Position numbers and translations under genes: made by a program
In this document: in pieces, positions 1 through 47,457 of the stretch
Layout: every line of letters starts with the position of its first letter
How positions within the stretch are numbered: the stretch's first letter is position 1
Notes under the pieces: generated by a model
The model's database searches: none
What the model was told of the DNA's origin: nothing
What the model saw: the letters and a program-made list of their open reading frames with translations, nothing else
NCBI GenBank assembly: GCA_910578995.1
Contig: CAJTSY010000007.1
Location: 7,194 to 71,193, forward strand
DNA length: 64,000 nt
Reading direction: 5' to 3'
From: an uncultured Acetatifactor sp.
GTDB taxonomy: Bacteria; Bacillota; Clostridia; Lachnospirales; Lachnospiraceae

Positions 1-1221
1 GTGGAGGCGAACAAGGTAGAGATCAGCTTAAGCTCCAAGGGAATACCCGCGGAGGACGTACTTGGGTATGAGATCGTACGCTGCATCTATGAGGGCGGCA
101 AGGTTCAGAAGGAAGTGGTGGGATTTGCGGAAGGTGGGACTGCCACCTATACGGACGTGATAGCTACCATTAACAACAGGACGGTATTTTATGAGGTTAC
201 CCTCATTGACAAGTACCTGAACCGCTCTGCGGTGAAGGAACTGGCTCCTGTGAAGATCGAGCATGACGGAAGCCTGGATAAGACCGGATGGACAGTCAGC
301 ACAAAGGACCTGGCCGTCGAAGGTGAGACCGGCACGGGAAGCAGCAATAATACACTGTACTGTGATCCGGATAATGAGACGACCTATGCAAAGGATAATC
401 TGATCGACAATAAGTCGGACACGGTATTTACGGCAACCGCAGGACAGGCGCCGGAGATCATGCTGAACTTTAATAAAAACCTTATCGTGGCAGGATTTAA
501 GATTACTGCCGGATCCGGACTTGCCGGGGTTGATTATCAGATTGTGACGTATGGCGGTGAAGTTCCTGTCAGTGTAGCGGAAGGAACATTTGGAGCGGCA
601 GCAGTGCAGACAATCCACTTTGCCAATTCCGCCGGCAAATATATCAGCACGCATGAGGCAAATGCGGTTAAGCTGATTCTGAAGCCGGCGGCCGGCAGCC
701 AGGTGTCCATCGCGGAACTGGATGTACTGGGCGTGACCGGTGACAATGTGGACTTCAGGAGAACCAGTGACGACAACAGTGCGGTGATTGGAATCCTGTC
801 AGAGGATTTCAAGTATGGCGATAACGCGGAGGATGTGATCCCGGCAGGTGCAATCGTCTTTGCGGGAGCCTATAAGGGAAATGCCGCGTACAATTCGGTG
901 CTGCTGTTTGACCAGGACGGCAATAATGTAGGCCGTGTCACAGGGACAGGCGATGAAGTGCAGGTAGAGGCATCGTCCATCATTATGGCGGACGTGCCGG
1001 AGGGCGGCGATATTACCGATGTGAGAAACGGCACCTGGATATACTGGGTGGATGCCGGAACGGACCTGTCCGGGGTGAAAAAGGTGCGCGCAGAGCTTTA
1101 TCGTGTCAACGACGCCCAGACCCAGGCTGGCCAGAGGGTTGTCAGCGACAGCCTGTTTGAGACGATGCCGGAAGTGCTGCCGTCAGTTACGCTGGACCGC
1201 GACGCAGGTTTGCAGAAGTAG
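1..1221 (+). CDS. C-terminal part of a large secreted carbohydrate-binding/glycosidase-type surface protein (discoidin / F5-8 type C-like module); 5' end lies outside the window
   Basis: Open frame from base 1. The segment TGWTVSTKDLAVEG...DNLIDNKSDTVFTA...PEIMLNFNKNLIVAGFKI follows the discoidin-type CBM pattern. Stop at 1219-1221. Confidence 0.6.
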   Translation: MEANKVEISLSSKGIPAEDVLGYEIVRCIYEGGKVQKEVVGFAEGGTATYTDVIATINNRTVFYEVTLIDKYLNRSAVKELAPVKIEHDGSLDKTGWTVSTKDLAVEGETGTGSSNNTLYCDPDNETTYAKDNLIDNKSDTVFTATAGQAPEIMLNFNKNLIVAGFKITAGSGLAGVDYQIVTYGGEVPVSVAEGTFGAAAVQTIHFANSAGKYISTHEANAVKLILKPAAGSQVSIAELDVLGVTGDNVDFRRTSDDNSAVIGILSEDFKYGDNAEDVIPAGAIVFAGAYKGNAAYNSVLLFDQDGNNVGRVTGTGDEVQVEASSIIMADVPEGGDITDVRNGTWIYWVDAGTDLSGVKKVRAELYRVNDAQTQAGQRVVSDSLFETMPEVLPSVTLDRDAGLQK

Positions 1222-1231
1222 GGGATAGAAT

Positions 1232-2278
1232 ATGAAAAAGAGTATTTTAACTGCATTTTTGGCATTCTTTATGCTTGTATTCCTGCCTTCCCTGCGGACG
1301 CAGGCGGAGAGCCAGGATGGATTTATGCTGGATGGGACAGGGGCGGTAACGCTCCAGTCCCAGCATGCCGCGAAGGAGGAAGTGTCGTCCCTTCAGTTCA
1401 GCCTGACGGTGGAAACTGAGGGGGAAGCGCAGGTTGAGTTTGTGTTTGAACCCAATCATGCAAGAATTGCGGAATTCCGTTACGATGAGGCTGCAAAAAA
1501 ACTGAATATTTATATGGCGGGAGTGGATCCGCTTTTTGAGGAGAATACGGACACACTGGCCGTTGGGAAGGTGGTTGTCCGGAATGGCAGCGGAGGGGAG
1601 GCTGTGGCCAAGGTCAGTGTGGTGGAGGATTCCCTTCAGTATGTCTATGGATCGGAACTAAAACTGATGGAAGAGGTGGAGATTCCAGAAGCGGTACAGC
1701 TGGGCAGTACATCGGGGACACAAGTGCCTTCTGAGACGCCTGAACCTTCTGAGACGCCTGGACCTGCTGAGACGCCTGGACCTTCTGAGACGCCAGTGCC
1801 GCCTTCTGAACCCCAGCCGTCTGACCCGGCCCCGGACCAGGGAACCGGCGACGACCCAAATGCGGGTTGGAATCCCGGATGGCAGTCCCCGGAAGAAAGT
1901 TCTACGGCAGGCGGAGGAGCCGGGAACGGCCGGAAACCCACAGGTACCAGTAAACCTGTGGGTACAAAGCGGGTGGAGGTAGTCTCTGCTGCATCGCCTT
2001 CCCCTACAGTGAATCCTTCCCCGGAGCCGTCAGATATACCCGGGGAGCCGGAGGATATGACCGGGCTGCCTGTCATCGACTTGGAGGAAGGGGAAGAGAT
2101 GGGATCCGCTCCTGCCATGACCGAACAGGAGGAGACCGAAGAGAATGGTCCGGCCCGTAAGGCAGACTGGGTTTTAATTGTGGTTGTTATAGCAATTGTC
2201 ATATTTGTTGCTGTGGCCGTCGTTTCCGTCATCGCTCTCAGCGGGAAAAAAACTCCCCGCAGCAACGGGCGAGGATGA
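1232..2278 (+). CDS. Membrane-anchored surface protein: signal peptide, cohesin-like beta domain, Pro/Glu/Thr/Ser linker, C-terminal TM helix
   Basis: ATG 10 nt after the upstream stop. N-terminal signal MKKSILTAFLAFFMLVFLPSLRTQA. PSETP repeats. C-terminal hydrophobic WVLIVVVIAIVIFVAVAVVSVIAL followed by KKTPRS. Confidence 0.65.
   Translation: MKKSILTAFLAFFMLVFLPSLRTQAESQDGFMLDGTGAVTLQSQHAAKEEVSSLQFSLTVETEGEAQVEFVFEPNHARIAEFRYDEAAKKLNIYMAGVDPLFEENTDTLAVGKVVVRNGSGGEAVAKVSVVEDSLQYVYGSELKLMEEVEIPEAVQLGSTSGTQVPSETPEPSETPGPAETPGPSETPVPPSEPQPSDPAPDQGTGDDPNAGWNPGWQSPEESSTAGGGAGNGRKPTGTSKPVGTKRVEVVSAASPSPTVNPSPEPSDIPGEPEDMTGLPVIDLEEGEEMGSAPAMTEQEETEENGPARKADWVLIVVVIAIVIFVAVAVVSVIALSGKKTPRSNGRG
1727..1798 (+). 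repeat. Four tandem copies of an 18-bp in-frame repeat (ccttctgagacgcctgra) encoding PSETP(E/G)
   Basis: Read directly in the sequence. Copies at 1727, 1745, 1763 and 1781. Confidence 0.8.
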
Positions 2279-2481
2279 GGGGAGACAGGCATATCAGCAG
2301 AGACCATGAAGGGGAATCATTTTCCAGGCTAAAAATGTAAATTTTGAATAAAGTGACGTATAAAATATTACATAGAATGGAAAACTTATATAATTGAAAA
2401 ATTATGAATATCATGGTATCATAAATATGTCAAGGTAGCGATAGGTTGCGCAGTGTCTGGCATTGCTATGAGGAAGATGAT

Positions 2482-3189
2482 ATGAGAATAGAACGAGTGG
2501 ATGAAAAGACAGTAAAATGTTTCCTGTCCAATGAAGAGCTTGAAGAATATGATATTGACTACAAGGACTTTATCCTGCGCAGCGACAAGGCAAGGGAGAT
2601 AGTACAGGAGATTATTGAACAGGCAGAAGAGGAAGTGGGCTATAAGCCGCCCAAGTTTGCGTTTGATCTGCAGATTATGATGCTGCCGGATCAGGGACTG
2701 ATCCTGACTTTTTCTGACAGGGATGCGGAGGCGCGGGAAAGCGATCAGTTCATTGAGTGCCTGAAGGAAATGAAACGAATCCTGCAGCGGACAAGAGAGA
2801 AGATTGCCGCAGGCACGGATTCCGGGGAAGAGACAGAGCAGAACGGGGAAGCCGGCTCCGGGGAAGAGAAGGGGAATAAGGCTCAGGAACAGCAGGTCAG
2901 CCGCCCCGGCTTTGCAGTGTTTGTGTTCTCCGGAATTGGCAGGATTATGGAATATGCCGCCATGCTGCCCTCCAACCTGATGGTGGACAGCAGCCTGTAC
3001 GAGATGGACGGACTCTATTATCTGTATCTGCTTAAAGGCCGTGCTTCCTACGAGCGGTACAGCAGAGCCTGTGTCCAGGCCATGGAATTTGGCAGCCTTT
3101 ATGCTGCGGATGAATCTCAGGTTCTCAGGCTGAGGGAGCATGGACAGTGCCTGATCAGTGAGAAGGTCATCCGGAAGCTGCGCGGGTAA
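2482..3189 (+). CDS. mecA: Adaptor protein MecA
   Basis: N-terminus MRIERVDEKTVKCFLSNEELEEYDIDYKDF...LQIMMLPDQGLILTF is the MecA signature. GAGGA RBS 7 nt upstream of ATG 2482. The longer ORF starting at 2446 lacks an RBS. Confidence 0.8.
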   Translation: MRIERVDEKTVKCFLSNEELEEYDIDYKDFILRSDKAREIVQEIIEQAEEEVGYKPPKFAFDLQIMMLPDQGLILTFSDRDAEARESDQFIECLKEMKRILQRTREKIAAGTDSGEETEQNGEAGSGEEKGNKAQEQQVSRPGFAVFVFSGIGRIMEYAAMLPSNLMVDSSLYEMDGLYYLYLLKGRASYERYSRACVQAMEFGSLYAADESQVLRLREHGQCLISEKVIRKLRG

Positions 3190-3660: not shown

Positions 3661-4542
3661 ATGGCGGGAAAACAGGGCAGAATGGCAGAAGCAGGACAAA
3701 TGGCGCAGGCAAACCGGGCATATTACGGGACCCGGGGCAGAAGACGGAAGAGGCGACGGAGGACCAGGGCGGCCGGATACTTTCTCAGATGCGCCGCTGC
3801 TGCGGTCCTGCTCATGGCTGTACTGGGAGCAGTCAGGGATGCGCTTATGAAACGTGTAAACGGAATGGAAGGCCTGACGGCGGATAAGGCATATGCCGGC
3901 GCTTCCCTGGAGACAGCAGGCGGAAACGGCGGAACCCAGGAGGAGCTTTTGCAGGAACTTTTGGAAAAGAACCAGGAGACCCTGGACTTTGTGAAGAGCT
4001 ACCCGGACAGGGAACAGTATAAGAGCCAGGCGGTTGACCTGGCGGAGGATTTTGAGGCCGGGGAAGTGCCCCTGCTGATGCAGTGGGACAGGCGCTGGGG
4101 ATATGACGCCTATGGGGAGGAACTGATCGGGCTTGCAGGGTGCGGTCCCCTCTGCCTTGACATGGCCTACCTGTATTTTACCGGCGACCTGGAGATGGAT
4201 CCCCGGAAGATGGCGGAGTATGCCTCTGGCGGGGGCTATTATACCGAATACGGCACCAGCTGGACGCTGTGGACTGAAGGGGCGGCGGGACTGGGAATGA
4301 CCGGAGAGGAGCTTCCCCTGGACGAAAACCGGATAAAGCAGGTTCTGGATTCCGGGGGACTGGTGGTATGCAGCATGGGGCCGGGAGACTTTACCACCAC
4401 AGGACATTTCATCCTGATAAGGGGATATGATGAAAACGGGTTTTTCGTCAATGACCCCAACCGCAGAAGCAACAGCCAAAAGATATGGGACTTTGAAAGC
4501 CTCCGGCGCCAGATCAAAAACCTGTGGGGGCTTTCAGTATAG
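3661..4542 (+). CDS. Membrane-anchored peptidase C39-like (C39_2) domain protein
   Basis: AGGAGGG RBS. Basic N-terminus plus a TM helix (AAAVLLMAVLGAV). Cys motif GCGPLCLDMAY and His motif GHFILIRGYDENGFFVNDPN, typical of C39-like papain-fold domains. Confidence 0.7.
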   Translation: MAGKQGRMAEAGQMAQANRAYYGTRGRRRKRRRRTRAAGYFLRCAAAAVLLMAVLGAVRDALMKRVNGMEGLTADKAYAGASLETAGGNGGTQEELLQELLEKNQETLDFVKSYPDREQYKSQAVDLAEDFEAGEVPLLMQWDRRWGYDAYGEELIGLAGCGPLCLDMAYLYFTGDLEMDPRKMAEYASGGGYYTEYGTSWTLWTEGAAGLGMTGEELPLDENRIKQVLDSGGLVVCSMGPGDFTTTGHFILIRGYDENGFFVNDPNRRSNSQKIWDFESLRRQIKNLWGLSV

Positions 4543-41268: not shown

Positions 41269-41361
41269 ACAGGCAGCTGAATCAGATAATAAGCGCTGCG
41301 TGAAGAACCCTGTGCGGGGGAGGCACATGGCGCAAATATATAAAATGGAGGTATTAGAATT

Positions 41362-42225
41362 ATGCTAGTTTCTGCAACAGAAATGCTTAAAAAAGCAAAG
41401 GCAGGCCATTATGCGGTGGGCCAGTTCAACATCAACAACCTGGAGTGGACCAAGTCCATCCTGCTGACTGCCAAGGAGTGCAAGTCCCCCGTGATTCTCG
41501 GCGTGTCCGAGGGCGCAGGCAAGTACATGGGCGGCTACCATGCGGTGGTGGGCATGGTGAACGGCCTGCTGAAGGATCTGGACATTGATGTTCCCGTAGC
41601 CCTTCATCTGGACCATGGTTCCTATGAGCACTGCTATAAGTGCATCGAGGCCGGTTTCTCGTCCGTAATGTTTGACGGATCCCACTATCCCATCGACGAG
41701 AACGTGGCGAAGACCACAGAGTTGGTTGCGGCGGCACACGGAAAGGGAATTTCCATTGAGGCCGAGGTAGGCTCCATCGGCGGAGAAGAAGACGGTGTGG
41801 TAGGCATGGGCGAGTGCGCTGATCCCAAGGAGTGCAAGGCCATCGCTGACCTGGGAGTTGACTTCCTGGCGGCAGGCATCGGCAATATCCACGGCAAATA
41901 TCCCGCTAACTGGAAGGGATTAAGCTTTGAGACCCTGGATGCCGTACAGCAGCTGACAGGGGACATGCCCCTGGTTCTTCACGGCGGCACAGGCATTCCT
42001 GCCGATATGATCAAAAAAGCCATCAGCCTGGGCGTGGCGAAGATCAATGTAAATACTGAGTGCCAGCTGGCCTTTGCCGCAGCTACCCGCAAGTACGTGG
42101 AAGAGGGCAAGGATCTGCAGGGCAAGGGATTTGACCCCCGCAAGCTTCTGGCTCCCGGAGCTGAGGCTATCAAGGCTACCGTAAAGGAGAAGATGGAGTT
42201 ATTTGGTTCTGTAGGCAAGGCCTAA
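41362..42225 (+). CDS. fba: Class II fructose-1,6-bisphosphate aldolase
   Basis: GHYAVGQFNINNLEW...LHLDHGS...HGGTGIP. Confidence 0.95.
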   Translation: MLVSATEMLKKAKAGHYAVGQFNINNLEWTKSILLTAKECKSPVILGVSEGAGKYMGGYHAVVGMVNGLLKDLDIDVPVALHLDHGSYEHCYKCIEAGFSSVMFDGSHYPIDENVAKTTELVAAAHGKGISIEAEVGSIGGEEDGVVGMGECADPKECKAIADLGVDFLAAGIGNIHGKYPANWKGLSFETLDAVQQLTGDMPLVLHGGTGIPADMIKKAISLGVAKINVNTECQLAFAAATRKYVEEGKDLQGKGFDPRKLLAPGAEAIKATVKEKMELFGSVGKA

Positions 42226-42273
42226 TTCATATTTTGTTAACAGATCATTCAATGTATATTTGATTTCTAATCA

Positions 42274-42408
42274 TTGTTTATACATTTCTTATGGATATAC
42301 TATATTCATAAGCAACGAAGACAAAATGAATTAGCAAGCCACAGTTTACAGAATAACTTTTTCATAATTATAGCCAGGGAACCCGGTTCCCTGGCATCCT
42401 CCTTTTTT
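42274..42408 (+). ncRNA. Candidate sRNA unit L: TTGTTT-N16-TATACT promoter, about 100-nt transcript, 9-bp hairpin, AUCCUCC, U6
   Basis: -35 at 42274-42279. -10 at 42296-42301. Hairpin gccagggaa cccgg ttccctggc at 42373-42395. atcctcc at 42396-42402. tttttt at 42403-42408. Confidence 0.4.
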
Positions 42409-42644
42409 AGGGGGGAAATCTGTCCTGTCAGGAATCAGGGAGCCGTCCCGGCCTTCATGCAATATCCCTTGGAAATAGAATAATCTGTATCCATCCTATA
42501 AAAACATGCCGGGACGGAAGGAATGTCGGCGGATCGGGTCGTGCGGGAAAGCGGAGGCCTTTGGTTCTTTCTGGAAACGGAGCCATAAAGCGGCCTGAGA
42601 AAAGGGAGTTATAAAGGTGAATGGGAAAGTTCTAAAAAGAGGTT

Positions 42645-42779
42645 CTGAAAAGGGAGGATGCCAGAGAACTTACGTTCCCTGGCATTATTATGAAAAAGTT
42701 ATTTAGTAAACAGTAACTCTGGTTGGCTGTAGGCTTTTGCTTGATAAAATCAGTATACTGAAAAGAAATGTATAAACAA
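42645..42779 (-). ncRNA. Candidate sRNA unit R, a paralog of unit L on the opposite strand
   Basis: On the minus strand: -35 TTGTTT at 42779-42774, -10 TATACT at 42757-42752 (spacer 16), hairpin at 42683-42660 (gccagggaac gtaa gttctctggc, one G-T pair), then atcctcc and tttt. Confidence 0.4.
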
Positions 42780-42837
42780 TGGTCTTTAATTTAATAATAA
42801 TTTAATGAATTGTTAACAAAACATGAACGCCCTGTAT

Positions 42838-43359
42838 TTAGCAGCATTCCGGCTCCGGATATTCCACCCCGAAGGTGTCCGCAGTCACACTTTCCATAAT
42901 CTGGGGCTCCAGGGGCCGGTCTCCGCCGTCGGTGGGAGTTTCAGCGATCCGGTTTACAACCTCCATGCCCTCCGTCACTTTACCGAAGGCAGCATAGCTT
43001 CCGTCCAGATGGGGCGCGCTCCTGTGCATGATGAAAAACTGGGAGCCCGCGGAATCAGGATGCATGGAGCGGGCCATGGACAGGACTCCGGGTGTGTGTT
43101 TCAGGTCATTTTTGACGCCGTTTCTGGCAAATTCGCCCTTGATGTGATAACCGGGGCCGCCCATGCCGCTTCCTTCGGGACAGCCGCCCTGGATCATGAA
43201 TCCATTGATGACCCGGTGGAAGATAAGGCCGTCGTAGAATTTCTTGTTTACCAGGCTGATGAAATTGTTCACGGAAATGGGAGCGGTCTCCGGGTACAGT
43301 TCAAGACGGATTATTTCCCCGCTTTTCATGGTGATGGTGACAACAGGATTTTTTTCCAT
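42838..43359 (-). CDS. ppiB: Peptidyl-prolyl cis-trans isomerase (cyclophilin type)
   Basis: FHRVINGFMIQGG...GVLSMAR...SQFFI. Confidence 0.95.
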   Translation of the reverse strand: MEKNPVVTITMKSGEIIRLELYPETAPISVNNFISLVNKKFYDGLIFHRVINGFMIQGGCPEGSGMGGPGYHIKGEFARNGVKNDLKHTPGVLSMARSMHPDSAGSQFFIMHRSAPHLDGSYAAFGKVTEGMEVVNRIAETPTDGGDRPLEPQIMESVTADTFGVEYPEPECC

Positions 43360-43457
43360 AATAGATATCCTTTCTGTTTAAAATGAGATATAATGACAAT
43401 TGTACCATGTGATTGTAACCTAAAATGTATCTTTCGTAAAGAGGGAAGTGGATAAAG

Positions 43458-44249
43458 TTGGCATACTTAAAAGAAATTCCCCTTGCCGTTGATGGGGAGA
43501 GGGCAGTGCTGTATGTGACGGACGACGCGGCGGCCGGGGAAGAGCTGCGCAGCCGGGGAGAGGCTGTGATTATCTACCTTCATCCGGAGAACCGGGATCA
43601 AGACTTTTCAGGATTTTTGTTTGCGGTGGAAGATCCGGAGGAGCTGGAGCCTGAATATGTGGAAAGGGCTTACCGCAGGCTGAAGGGGATGCCCTGGAAT
43701 ATTCTGGAGACGGACAGATGCCTGGTGCGGGAGACCATGCCGGAGGATGTGGAGGCTTTTTACCGGATCTACAGCAATCCGGCCATTACGGAGTACATGG
43801 AGGATCTGTATCCGGACAGGGAGCAGGAGAAACGTTACATCCGGGAATATATTGAAAAAGTCTATACCTTTTTCGGTTTCGGCGTGTGGACGGTGGTGGA
43901 GAAGGGAACCGGAGAGGTTATCGGACGTGCGGGCTTTTCCTACCGGGAAGGATTTGAAGATCCGGAACTGGGGTTTATCATCGGAGTACCCTGGCAGCGG
44001 CAGGGATATGCGTGGGAGGTCTGCAGGGCGGTGTTGGCCTATGCTTCGGCGGCCCTGGAATTTCATAAAGTGCAGGCTCTGGTGGAGACGGAGAATCTCC
44101 CGTCTCTGAAACTGTGCGAACGGCTGGGATTCCGGCGCCATTCCCTTGTAACTTTAAACGGCAGGAGCCATTATCTTCTTTTTCTGACCGAATTTGCCGG
44201 GGAAGCCGAAAGTCAGGCAGTCCCGGCAACGGGGGAGGATTTCGGATGA
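43458..44249 (+). CDS. GNAT-family N-acetyltransferase (RimJ/RimL-like) with a roughly 95-aa N-terminal extension
   Basis: TTG start. GNAT core GEVIGRAGF...WQRQGYAWEV...LGFR. Confidence 0.8.
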   Translation: MAYLKEIPLAVDGERAVLYVTDDAAAGEELRSRGEAVIIYLHPENRDQDFSGFLFAVEDPEELEPEYVERAYRRLKGMPWNILETDRCLVRETMPEDVEAFYRIYSNPAITEYMEDLYPDREQEKRYIREYIEKVYTFFGFGVWTVVEKGTGEVIGRAGFSYREGFEDPELGFIIGVPWQRQGYAWEVCRAVLAYASAALEFHKVQALVETENLPSLKLCERLGFRRHSLVTLNGRSHYLLFLTEFAGEAESQAVPATGEDFG

Positions 44250-46433: not shown

Positions 46434-46737
46434 ATACACACCTCCTGCATTCTTTTTCCCATTGTTTTCAGGTTGAGAATATCATACTCTCATTCCCGGG
46501 AAAAGGCAACAAATATTATCGCACTATATGCGGAGGTAACGTGCTTGCGGAAACCTTCGAAGCATATGCCTTTAAGTTTATTGAAAAATAAGGTTATTTT
46601 TTGCAGTAAGTATGATATAATGACTTTGTTTCATGCAGGTGTCCCGGGGAGGCTTTTTTGGCAGAAAGCAGTGTATCCTTTATGAAAATGGGGCAGACTG
46701 TAGAGACAGCGTAAATTATTTCAGGAGGAGACTTATT

Positions 46738-47457
46738 ATGAAAAAAATGTTTTTGTACCTGTGCGTCGGGGCTGCGGTTCTGAGTCTGTCGGCATGCGGC
46801 AAGGCAGGCCGGGAGGAGGGAAGCTCCCAGGAGCAGGGCAGTGAATCGGGCAGCCAGGAGCAGCCGGGCGCCGGGGATGAGAGCACCCAGGAGGGTACCG
46901 GGGATGACAGCCAGGAGGGTATCGGGGATGACGGCCAGTCGGGAGCCGGGGACGGCAGTCTGGAGGACGGACAGGTTCCGGAGACCCCCGAGGGCTGGAG
47001 CGAGGAAATGCAGGGGATGAGGGATGCGGTTGTAGAAGCGCTGGGTCAGGAGAATTACTGGCCGGACATGCCTGTTGATGCCCAGATGCTGGAGATGTTT
47101 TACGGGATTACATCCGATATGTACGAGGACTATATGGCCGAGACGCCCATGATCAGCGCAAATGTGGATGCCCTGGTGATCATCCGGGCAGCTGATGACA
47201 AGGCGGACGGGGTGGAGGAAGCCCTGAAGGCCTACCGGGAGGCAAATGTGAACGATACCATGCAGTATCCCCAGAATGTGGGCAAGATCCAGGCGTCCCA
47301 GGTGGAACGGATAGGCTCTTATGTTGTCTTCGTACAGCTGGGGGGATTTGCCATTGAGGCAGAATCGGAGGAAGAGGTGATTGCCCAGTGCCAGGAGGCC
47401 AACAGTCTGGCCCTGGATACGATTCGCGAAAAAATTGAAGGTTCTGCGGGAAACTGA
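46738..47457 (+). CDS. DUF4358-like lipoprotein
   Basis: AGGAGG RBS. Lipobox LSLSAC|G. Acidic linker, then LGQENYWPDM...MFYGITSDMYEDY...PMISANVDALVIIRA. Confidence 0.75.
   Translation: MKKMFLYLCVGAAVLSLSACGKAGREEGSSQEQGSESGSQEQPGAGDESTQEGTGDDSQEGIGDDGQSGAGDGSLEDGQVPETPEGWSEEMQGMRDAVVEALGQENYWPDMPVDAQMLEMFYGITSDMYEDYMAETPMISANVDALVIIRAADDKADGVEEALKAYREANVNDTMQYPQNVGKIQASQVERIGSYVVFVQLGGFAIEAESEEEVIAQCQEANSLALDTIREKIEGSAGN

Follow-up and report, generated by a model that had tools for sequence, protein, structure and literature searches.

Several described systems come close to the element considered here. In enterobacteria, small RNAs (sRNAs) such as DapZ and MicL are embedded in the 3' untranslated region (3'UTR) of a parent gene, have their own promoter and share the terminator of that gene. 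Among Firmicutes, the sRNAs RsaE/RoxS, FsrA and RNAIII carry a C-rich or UCCC anti-Shine-Dalgarno motif (PMC4152353). In Clostridium saccharobutylicum (formerly C. acetobutylicum P262), p3 is a nitrogen-induced antisense RNA of glnA of 43 nt; its gene lies just downstream of glnA in convergent orientation, and its sequence complements the 5' part of a nitrogen-assimilation mRNA (PMC3025663, PMC4152353). Here we analyse a 64,000-nt stretch of DNA from an uncultured Acetatifactor sp. of the Lachnospiraceae (contig CAJTSY010000007.1, hereafter the window) and, within it, the 612-bp spacer on which fba (forward strand) and ppiB (reverse strand) converge. Our favoured reading, held with moderate confidence and built on comparative evidence, is that this spacer consists of two diverged, convergent paralogues of a conserved Lachnospiraceae sRNA gene, each with its own putative promoter and a 3' module directed against translation initiation regions. 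The left unit abuts the stop codon of fba and the right one begins 9 nt past that of ppiB. Along the window, the genes and the parts of the spacer are as follows.

41362..42225, forward strand: fba, class II fructose-bisphosphate aldolase, 287 aa (list of open reading frames, ORFs; Pfam F_bP_aldolase on the identical protein)
42226..42415, forward strand: left unit, complete copy, co-directional with fba (nhmmer model positions 2-187, E=7e-38)
42226..42286, forward strand: left upstream array, TTCA-like tetramers every 11 bp (TTCA, TTAA, TTCA, TTTG, ATCA, TACA; sequence and family consensus)
42296..42301, forward strand: left −10, TATACT, with predicted transcription start at ca. 42308 (fixed near-invariant column, 122 units)
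42352..42368, forward strand: left invariant stretch AAUAACUUUUUCAUAAU, complement of AUUAUGAAAAAGUUAUU (alignment; mostly unpaired in minimum-free-energy folds)
42373..42395, forward strand: left hairpin 1, 10-bp stem, loop CCG (repeat search, fold, family covariation)
42396..42415, forward strand: left AUCCUCC (anti-Shine-Dalgarno), then U6 and GGGGGG (sequence, fold)
42416..42644, no strand: central filler of ca. 229 bp, richer in G+C (only self-matches in blastn and tblastx; composition profile)
42645..42828, reverse strand: right unit, complete copy, co-directional with ppiB (nhmmer positions 1-185, E=1e-35)
42648..42657, reverse strand: right CCUCCC, then UUUU (sequence)
42658..42685, reverse strand: right hairpin 1, 12-bp stem including one G·U, loop GUAA (terminator scan, fold)
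42687..42703, reverse strand: right invariant stretch AAUAACUUUUUCAUAAU (family alignment)
42752..42757, reverse strand: right −10, TATACT, with predicted transcription start at ca. 42745 (family alignment)
42838..43359, reverse strand: ppiB, cyclophilin-type peptidyl-prolyl isomerase, 173 aa (ORF list; protein annotation)

The segments 42226-42410 (forward strand) and 42827-42645 (reverse strand) are an inverted duplication. An inverted-repeat search paired 42226-42301 with 42752-42827 and 42341-42410 with 42645-42714 (76% complementary each), blastn gave a single match of 188 nt across both blocks (73.9% identity, E=2e-23) and a MAFFT alignment had 80% column identity. All three bear out a first-pass annotation of this DNA, which had described an inverted duplication of ca. 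185 nt in a spacer with no credible ORF; the 612 bp hold only short ORFs, none of them matched in related loci. All the motifs that it had described were also found, i.e., an arm-start motif behind the stop codons (TTCATRTTTTGTTAACA, beginning directly after each), TTGTTT-N16-TATACT in both arms (−10 at 42296-42301 on the left and 42757-42752 on the right), a conserved 17-mer (AATAACTTTTTCATAAT, identical at 42352-42368 on the forward strand and 42703-42687 on the reverse strand), hairpins in which the stems are kept and the loops differ (42373-42395 and 42685-42658) and, after each hairpin, ATCCTCC with a T-run. Its −35 block fared less evenly: the 19 nt are identical between the arms, but the TTGTTT hexamer within them is not conserved across the family (122 units). 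In the window AATAACTTTTTCATAAT has four matches at three mismatches or fewer, two of them exact, against 0.12 expected, and neither blastn nor the nhmmer profile detected a third copy of the unit in the 64 kb.

Relatives were collected in two sets. The first comprised 80 fba loci from other species, searched by blastn and then by three rounds of nhmmer. The second was obtained with a pattern taken from the 3' module only (CTTTTTCATAAT...GCCAR...YTGGCATCCTCC), which retrieved at least 120 metagenomic contigs. The neighbour counts, anatomy and copy numbers given below cover the matches listed from both sets. A complete unit of ca. 185 nt is present in 32 of the 80 fba-anchored loci, one copy per locus, and lies on the strand opposite to fba in 31 of these 32 (the exception being L018). 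Promoter-like blocks stand upstream in all 120 contigs listed from the 3'-module pattern, most of them full length and the partial ones mostly at contig ends, and since the 3' pattern is always accompanied by these blocks the 185 nt form one unit. It is found at full length in at least 147 other Lachnospiraceae loci, one of them (L011) from a cultured carrier, Parablautia muri D42-62, with sources that include human gut, rumen, mouse and other metagenomes, and the family profile matches both arms of the window with E=1e-35 to 7e-38.

A single copy is the rule (145 of the 147 related loci listed). The only two-copy loci among these matches are L138 and L201, both with copies in direct orientation. 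At L138 (5901-6350, reverse strand) the near-identical copies stand in tandem at a distance of 265 bp and point to a recent duplication, and at L201 (2031-2232 and 3547-3748, reverse strand) they are 1.5 kb apart. Duplication of the unit recurs, and the inverted arrangement of the window is so far unique among the loci listed. A search of 2.9 million viral contigs found no instance of the unit pattern, and none of 72,556 plasmids matched the spacer. The unit resembles a gene in being chromosomal, for the most part syntenic and essentially single-copy; the scattered multi-copy repeat, of the kind of a miniature inverted-repeat transposable element (MITE), that the first-pass annotation had considered as an adverse outcome was seen neither in the window and the relatives nor in phages and plasmids.

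The commonest arrangement has ppiB directly upstream and co-directional (49 of the 149 units listed, the total to which the following counts also refer). The gene fba is downstream and convergent in 37 and, as for the left arm, upstream and co-directional in 12; glnN, for a type III glutamine synthetase, is downstream and convergent in 20, and a PII gene is upstream and divergent in 11. In ca. 45 units the upstream gene, whatever its identity, is divergent. At least one of fba, ppiB and glnN is present in 84 of the 120 unit-anchored contigs listed. As the upstream gene varies or is divergent, the unit, where transcribed, must often need a promoter of its own. A gene resembling alanine/cation symporters (agcS-like) is downstream and co-directional in 12 units; it lies 140-230 nt 3' of the unit (e.g., L016:2783-2988, reverse strand, with the ORF at 1114-2643, reverse strand), and in those genomes the terminator of the unit could serve as its attenuator.

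The anatomy profile, drawn from 122 distinct units, has a conspicuous upstream architecture. The tetramers TTcA, TTcA, TT.a, TTcA, aaCA and ..CA occupy columns 2, 13, 24, 35, 46 and 57, in exact 11-bp phase, with the first two repeats near-invariant (GTTCATAnnnnGTTCAyA). This phased array extends to 12 bp before a near-invariant TATAcT at fixed columns 72-77, and no −35 hexamer is conserved among the 122 units. About 7 nt past the −10 many units read cATAAGATACAG, which fits the starts predicted earlier at 42308 and 42745. Promoters that winged-helix response regulators activate by tandem binding are built in this way, with tandem repeats, a −10 and no −35, and the PhoP boxes of Bacillus subtilis (OmpR/PhoB type) read TT(A/T/C)A(C/T)A, repeated at 11-bp periodicity. 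The unit resembles such promoters in its six direct TTCA-type repeats, one per 11 bp, and in having no conserved −35; TTCATA and TTAACA in the window agree with the PhoP hexamer. Because the phased repeats abut a good −10 without a conserved −35, the promoter looks activator-dependent, and a regulator of the tandem-binding response-regulator type would be expected. The box-pair pattern GTTCATANNNNGTTCAYA does not occur elsewhere in the window. Set against sigma-54, sporulation-sigma, Rex, CcpA, GlnR/TnrA and ARG-box sites as generally described, the conserved blocks did not appear to fit any.

Past the promoter, the body of the unit (25-70 nt) is poorly conserved, and it is followed by a 3' module with the consensus aaAACTTTTTCATAATaaa-TGCCArG...CyTGGCA-TCCTCCCTTTt. 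Hairpin 1 of this module is paired in 98.1% of the cells of a 31-sequence alignment, with compensatory double changes at 8 of its 10 pairs; none of 500 column shuffles was as good, and slid controls were 23-43% paired. RNAalifold, run on the predicted transcripts, recovered exactly hairpin 1 and nothing else. Six sequences folded singly had z-scores of −2.5 to −6.3, with most of UUUUUCAUAAUAAA unpaired in most of them. The invariant AACUUUUUCAUAAU and CCUCCC are likewise mostly unpaired in the folds; in that of the left arm, 5 bases of AAUAACUUUUUCAUAAU are paired. A second hairpin (hairpin 2), formed by CCUCCC with a downstream GGGAG and followed by a U-run, is paired in 59% of the family cells and looks like the true terminator in many species. 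In the left unit GGGGGG is able to pair back with CCUCC and so form hairpin 2, and a terminator scan of the window called, of the two units, the right one only. We do not claim a further candidate, a hairpin 0 that would sequester AAUAACUU: it was only weakly better than shuffles (−2.4 vs. −1.7 kcal/mol) and was not recovered by RNAalifold.

The hairpins also tell the strands apart. In 66 distinct hairpins we counted 24 G·U pairs on the arm strand as against 6 A·C pairs, at which the reverse strand would have G·U. The arm strand forms the more stable structure in 44 of these hairpins and the reverse strand in 4. The G·U bias, the stability and the direction of the −10 together indicate that the selected RNA is that of the arm strand.

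Conserved DNA signals upstream, a 5' body free of constraint and a fixed 3' end make up the profile expected of an sRNA gene with a functional seed and terminator. If the units are transcribed, as we infer, the RNA would be ca. 100-130 nt long and start ca. 7 nt past TATACT; its 5' part would be free to vary, and its fixed 3' part would consist of single-stranded AACUUUUUCAUAAU, hairpin 1, CCUCCC and a U-run. The suggestion in the first-pass annotation that the spacer holds two convergent, paralogous promoter-to-hairpin units, candidate sRNA genes, gains support from the family profile, the −10, the covariation and the variety of contexts, and where it had allowed for 3'UTRs devoid of conserved structure, the homologues have a conserved hairpin. 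It had also recognized no known RNA family. A permissive cmscan against Rfam 15 (E to 10) of 41300-43500 and of seven related loci returned no match to the unit above noise, the best matches overlapping it scoring 13-21 bits against gathering scores of 40-100, and in the literature we found no description of the element.

Over the family alignment the two arms of the window are 68% identical, the best match of each to units of other species is 71%, and all invariant family columns are kept in both. With arms as diverged as units of different species and the invariant columns retained, either the duplication is of long standing or the variable parts have reached saturation, and purifying selection has acted on both copies. 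The right arm has the common order, ppiB then unit, and the left one the rarer order, fba then unit (11 other loci). Because each copy sits directly after a stop codon, each probably doubles as 3'UTR and terminator of fba or ppiB. The assemblies with identical fba or ppiB proteins (four independent ones) have a spacer identical in sequence and orientation and are, therefore, uninformative on constraint and on strain-level variation.

The core between the arms (42416-42644) has a G+C content of 45-58%, as against 26-39% in the arms, and includes a perfect 10-bp inverted repeat, CCGTCCCGGC (42443-42452) and GCCGGGACGG (42508-42517). As to its origin, blastn and tblastx against ca. 200 related loci and the rest of the window gave no match. 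At 42212-42224, overlapping the stop codon of fba, there is a 5-bp hairpin (TAGGC-AAG-GCCTA) with ATTCATATTT behind it; the terminator scan flagged this hairpin, which is weak and probably not functional. Directly 3' of fba in two relatives (L069:4868-4917 and L017:4861-4931) there are sub-threshold matches to the Rfam family Thr_leader, with 24-32 bits against a gathering score of 55, which look like the ordinary terminator of fba. The window has no such separate element after fba, since the left unit starts at the stop codon.

How the RNA might act is suggested by the 3' module itself, which is perfectly complementary to a Shine-Dalgarno sequence together with AUG-AAA-AAG. In the proposed duplex the Shine-Dalgarno sequence would be bound by CCUCCC, and AUUAUG-AAA-AA by UUUUUCAUAAU (in extended form, (UUU)AUUAUGAAAAA by UUUUUCAUAAU(AAA)), the CAU-containing stretch reading the start codon and two lysine codons. 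At the junction hairpin 1 would be retained, and we infer that the RNA would act by blocking the ribosome. There is a likeness to the 3' end of 16S rRNA (helix 45 followed by CCUCC), in that the anti-Shine-Dalgarno tail of the unit also follows a hairpin.

The consensus seeds were scored against 1220 Shine-Dalgarno-preceded starts of ORFs of at least 100 aa in the related loci. Over a background of −13.6 ± 3.8 kcal/mol, the four best sites were all PII (glnK-like) genes, at −28.9 kcal/mol. The best two of 40 gene families were the ammonium transporter (median −20.8 kcal/mol) and PII (median −20.7 kcal/mol), with fba, ppiB, glnN and other families at background. PII and the ammonium transporter (Amt) separated from the rest with a Mann-Whitney p of 8e-8, compared to 1e-4 to 0.57 for eight shuffled-seed controls. 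In L089, cofolding of the cognate RNA with the PII initiation region formed 14 + 7 bp around an intact hairpin 1 (ddG −10.7 kcal/mol), and the adjacent amt gene gave −8.6 kcal/mol. PII and amt genes adjoin the unit in many of the loci listed. Our leading hypothesis is that the mRNAs of PII (glnK-like) and the ammonium transporter are the best candidate targets in the relatives. As a separate observation, the PII and amt genes beside the unit have nearly the same ca. 20 nt before the start (cgcaaaacaaggaggatt[g/a]ttATG) at L089:3320-3420 and 3930-3950 and at L069:7717-7800, and the PII leader there has an extra AAAACAAGGAGG and then an SD-like AAATCCTCTCC that could fold onto an anti-SD (SD, Shine-Dalgarno); a separate, leader-based control of the PII-amt operon may exist.

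In the window itself, a target scan was dominated by internal sites. The highest-ranked site that we judged a true gene start is that of a lipoprotein-like gene (MKKMFLYLCVGAAVLSLSACGK...) at 46738, whose initiation region (AGGAGGAgacttATTATGAAAAAAATG, 46720-46760) has a predicted −21.4 kcal/mol with the 3' module, among the strongest pairings predicted within the window, and we take it as a lead only; a gene resembling those of the MBOAT family lies 3' of it. Two neighbours were tried as targets and rejected. For ppiB, as target or by autoregulation, the initiation region in the window partly matches the seed (ATTATGGAAAAAAAT), while the relatives start MAQNP and have no complementarity; its start, at 43359-43345 on the reverse strand, reads AGGATATCTATTATGGAAAAAAAT, and the partial complementarity is unconserved in the relatives. 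For an HPr-like gene (window 40085, AAGGAGGAaagaaATGAAAAAG) the complementarity is not conserved across 33 loci.

In its fullest form our reading would make the unit a widely conserved and so far unrecognised riboregulator through which gut Lachnospiraceae control nitrogen uptake and signalling, with two-part recognition of initiation regions, a three-way junction on glnK/amtB mRNAs, a response-regulator switch on the six TTCA repeats and a dose doubled by an ancient inverted duplication; we offer this whole only tentatively and find it unlikely to be right in every part. Several observations weigh against our interpretation. The phased repeats could reflect DNA curvature instead of a regulator. 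The U-run begins 7-8 nt after hairpin 1, which, though strong, is then not a canonical terminator, and hairpin 2 occurs in only ca. 60% of the units. The target set amounts to 14 distinct PII/Amt initiation regions that are related by descent and biased as neighbours of the unit, and shuffled seeds also favour these AU-rich regions with strong SD sequences, to a lesser degree. Complementarity to an SD sequence plus AUG-AAA-AAG would match many ordinary genes starting MKK, and in the 64-kb window we found no PII, amt or glnN gene.

The alternative that survives best accepts a real sRNA and denies that it acts on ribosome-binding sites. It would instead be a platform for a protein (chaperone, RNase or sponge), or act only in cis on the 3' ends of the convergent fba and glnN, with which the units listed are convergent in 37 and 20 cases. 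The stem base UGCCAG/CUGGCA is fixed in sequence, beyond what pairing demands, and among the neighbours tested (ppiB and the HPr-like gene) there was no single conserved target. On the other hand, the complementarity to SD plus AUG-AAA-AAG and the top rank of PII/Amt among 40 families would then be a coincidence, and C-rich anti-SD seeds are the common mode of action of Firmicute sRNAs such as RsaE, FsrA and RNAIII (PMC4152353). We regard this explanation as rather improbable.

A second possibility, which we also find improbable, is that the units do no more than provide fba and ppiB with a 3'UTR and a terminator. They would then be conserved for efficient termination between convergent, highly expressed genes and would have no independent RNA product or function. 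Both window units do lie at a stop codon or within 9 nt of one, there is no other convincing terminator before the hairpin, and ppiB directly upstream and co-directional is, as said, the arrangement in 49 of the 149 units; read the other way, hairpin 1 has the U-rich UUUAUUAU behind it and could stop the convergent gene too. A terminator, however, needs no invariant 14-mer upstream, no stem bases fixed in sequence and no fixed TATACT or repeats 100-180 nt upstream. Moreover, units with an unrelated upstream gene or, in ca. 45 of those listed, a divergent one are still complete, and L069 and L017 keep the unit despite a separate terminator-like structure directly after fba.

It is also conceivable, at a considerably lower level of probability, that the opposite strand is the functional one. 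Read in reverse complement, the 3' module is AAAAGGGAGGA-[hairpin]-UUUAUUAUGAAAAAGUU, in which GGGAGGA, the hairpin and AUUAUGAAAAAG might be a split ribosome-binding site for a short ORF (MKKLF...), a type I toxin or a leader peptide, with the arm RNA as its cis-antisense partner. Folding of hairpin 1 would bring SD and AUG to the ideal spacing of 7-8 nt, and several of the short ORFs are hydrophobic. However, these ORFs have 4-32 aa and are unconserved past MKK(L/F), L063 has no ATG at all, the G·U bias (24 vs. 6) is that of the arm strand, there is no conserved promoter on that side and the sequence past the CCTCCC side is unconserved, and in most contexts such a transcript would run into the 3' end of the convergent gene. 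With no conserved small hydrophobic ORF on the opposite strand, we rejected a type I toxin-antitoxin system. We read the SD/AUG likeness of the reverse complement as the mirror image of a putative anti-initiation-region module on the arm strand.

Least credible of all is an element acting as DNA (a MITE-like mobile repeat, an inverton switch made of the two arms or a landing pad for a transcription factor): it would account for the long inverted repeats around a 229-bp unique core and for the recurrent duplications (tandem at L138, two copies at L201), but there are only two copies in 64 kb, one per locus in the relatives and none in phages or plasmids, fba, ppiB or glnN is nearby in 84 of the 120 metagenome loci listed, single units have no terminal inverted repeats, the spacer has the same orientation and sequence in four independent assemblies, the arms share only 74% identity along their 185 nt, unlike recombinase sites, and the hairpin covariation and G·U strand bias indicate selection on RNA.

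Lachnospiraceae are dominant, health-relevant gut commensals, and to our knowledge almost none of their sRNAs have been characterised; our search of the literature for such characterised sRNAs found none. The sRNA gene that we favour would be an entry point to post-transcriptional regulation in this family of bacteria and is a good candidate for a new Rfam family. It would be a useful one to work with, having a clear promoter architecture, a covarying hairpin, an invariant seed and a concrete hypothesis on the initiation regions of glnK and amtB. A seed that clamps SD and start codon on either side of a retained hairpin, as proposed here, has an uncommon geometry, and the inverted pair is a natural case of sRNA gene duplication with both copies kept under selection.

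Among the systems described at the outset, the C-rich Firmicute sRNAs resemble the unit as free-standing genes of ca. 100 nt in low-GC Gram-positives, with their own promoter and terminator and a C-rich complement of the SD sequence that is predicted to block the ribosome. They differ from it in having no homology to it in sequence or structure. The C-rich motif of the unit lies 3' of the conserved hairpin, often in the stem of a terminator and not in a loop, and the unit adds a second invariant stretch, against the start codon and the next two codons, which would make a three-way-junction clamp.

The resemblance to p3 is one of position, the unit being convergent with glnN in 20 of the relatives listed and next to a PII gene in 11. 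However, its predicted pairing is with PII and amt and not with the adjacent glutamine synthetase gene, glnN being at background. It is also longer, has a conserved hairpin and in the window lies between fba and ppiB without a nitrogen gene, the two having been compared by description only. With glnN initiation regions at a median of −13.8 kcal/mol, i.e., at background, we rejected an identity as an antisense RNA of the p3/glnA type.

Like DapZ and MicL, the unit begins at the stop codon of a gene read in its own direction, or a few nt past it, and no terminator other than its own is evident, so that read-through and promoter-derived transcripts would share their 3' end. It differs from them in that its putative promoter comes after the stop codon and not inside the coding sequence, in that it also occurs fully intergenic with divergent neighbours, and in belonging to another phylum, with no dependence on Hfq implied. 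By sequence and structure, the unit is not a member of any of the families compared. We would classify it as a base-pairing sRNA gene of a familiar bacterial kind, new as a family in sequence and structure and duplicated here, for which the comparative case is strong and the function is proposed from sequence.

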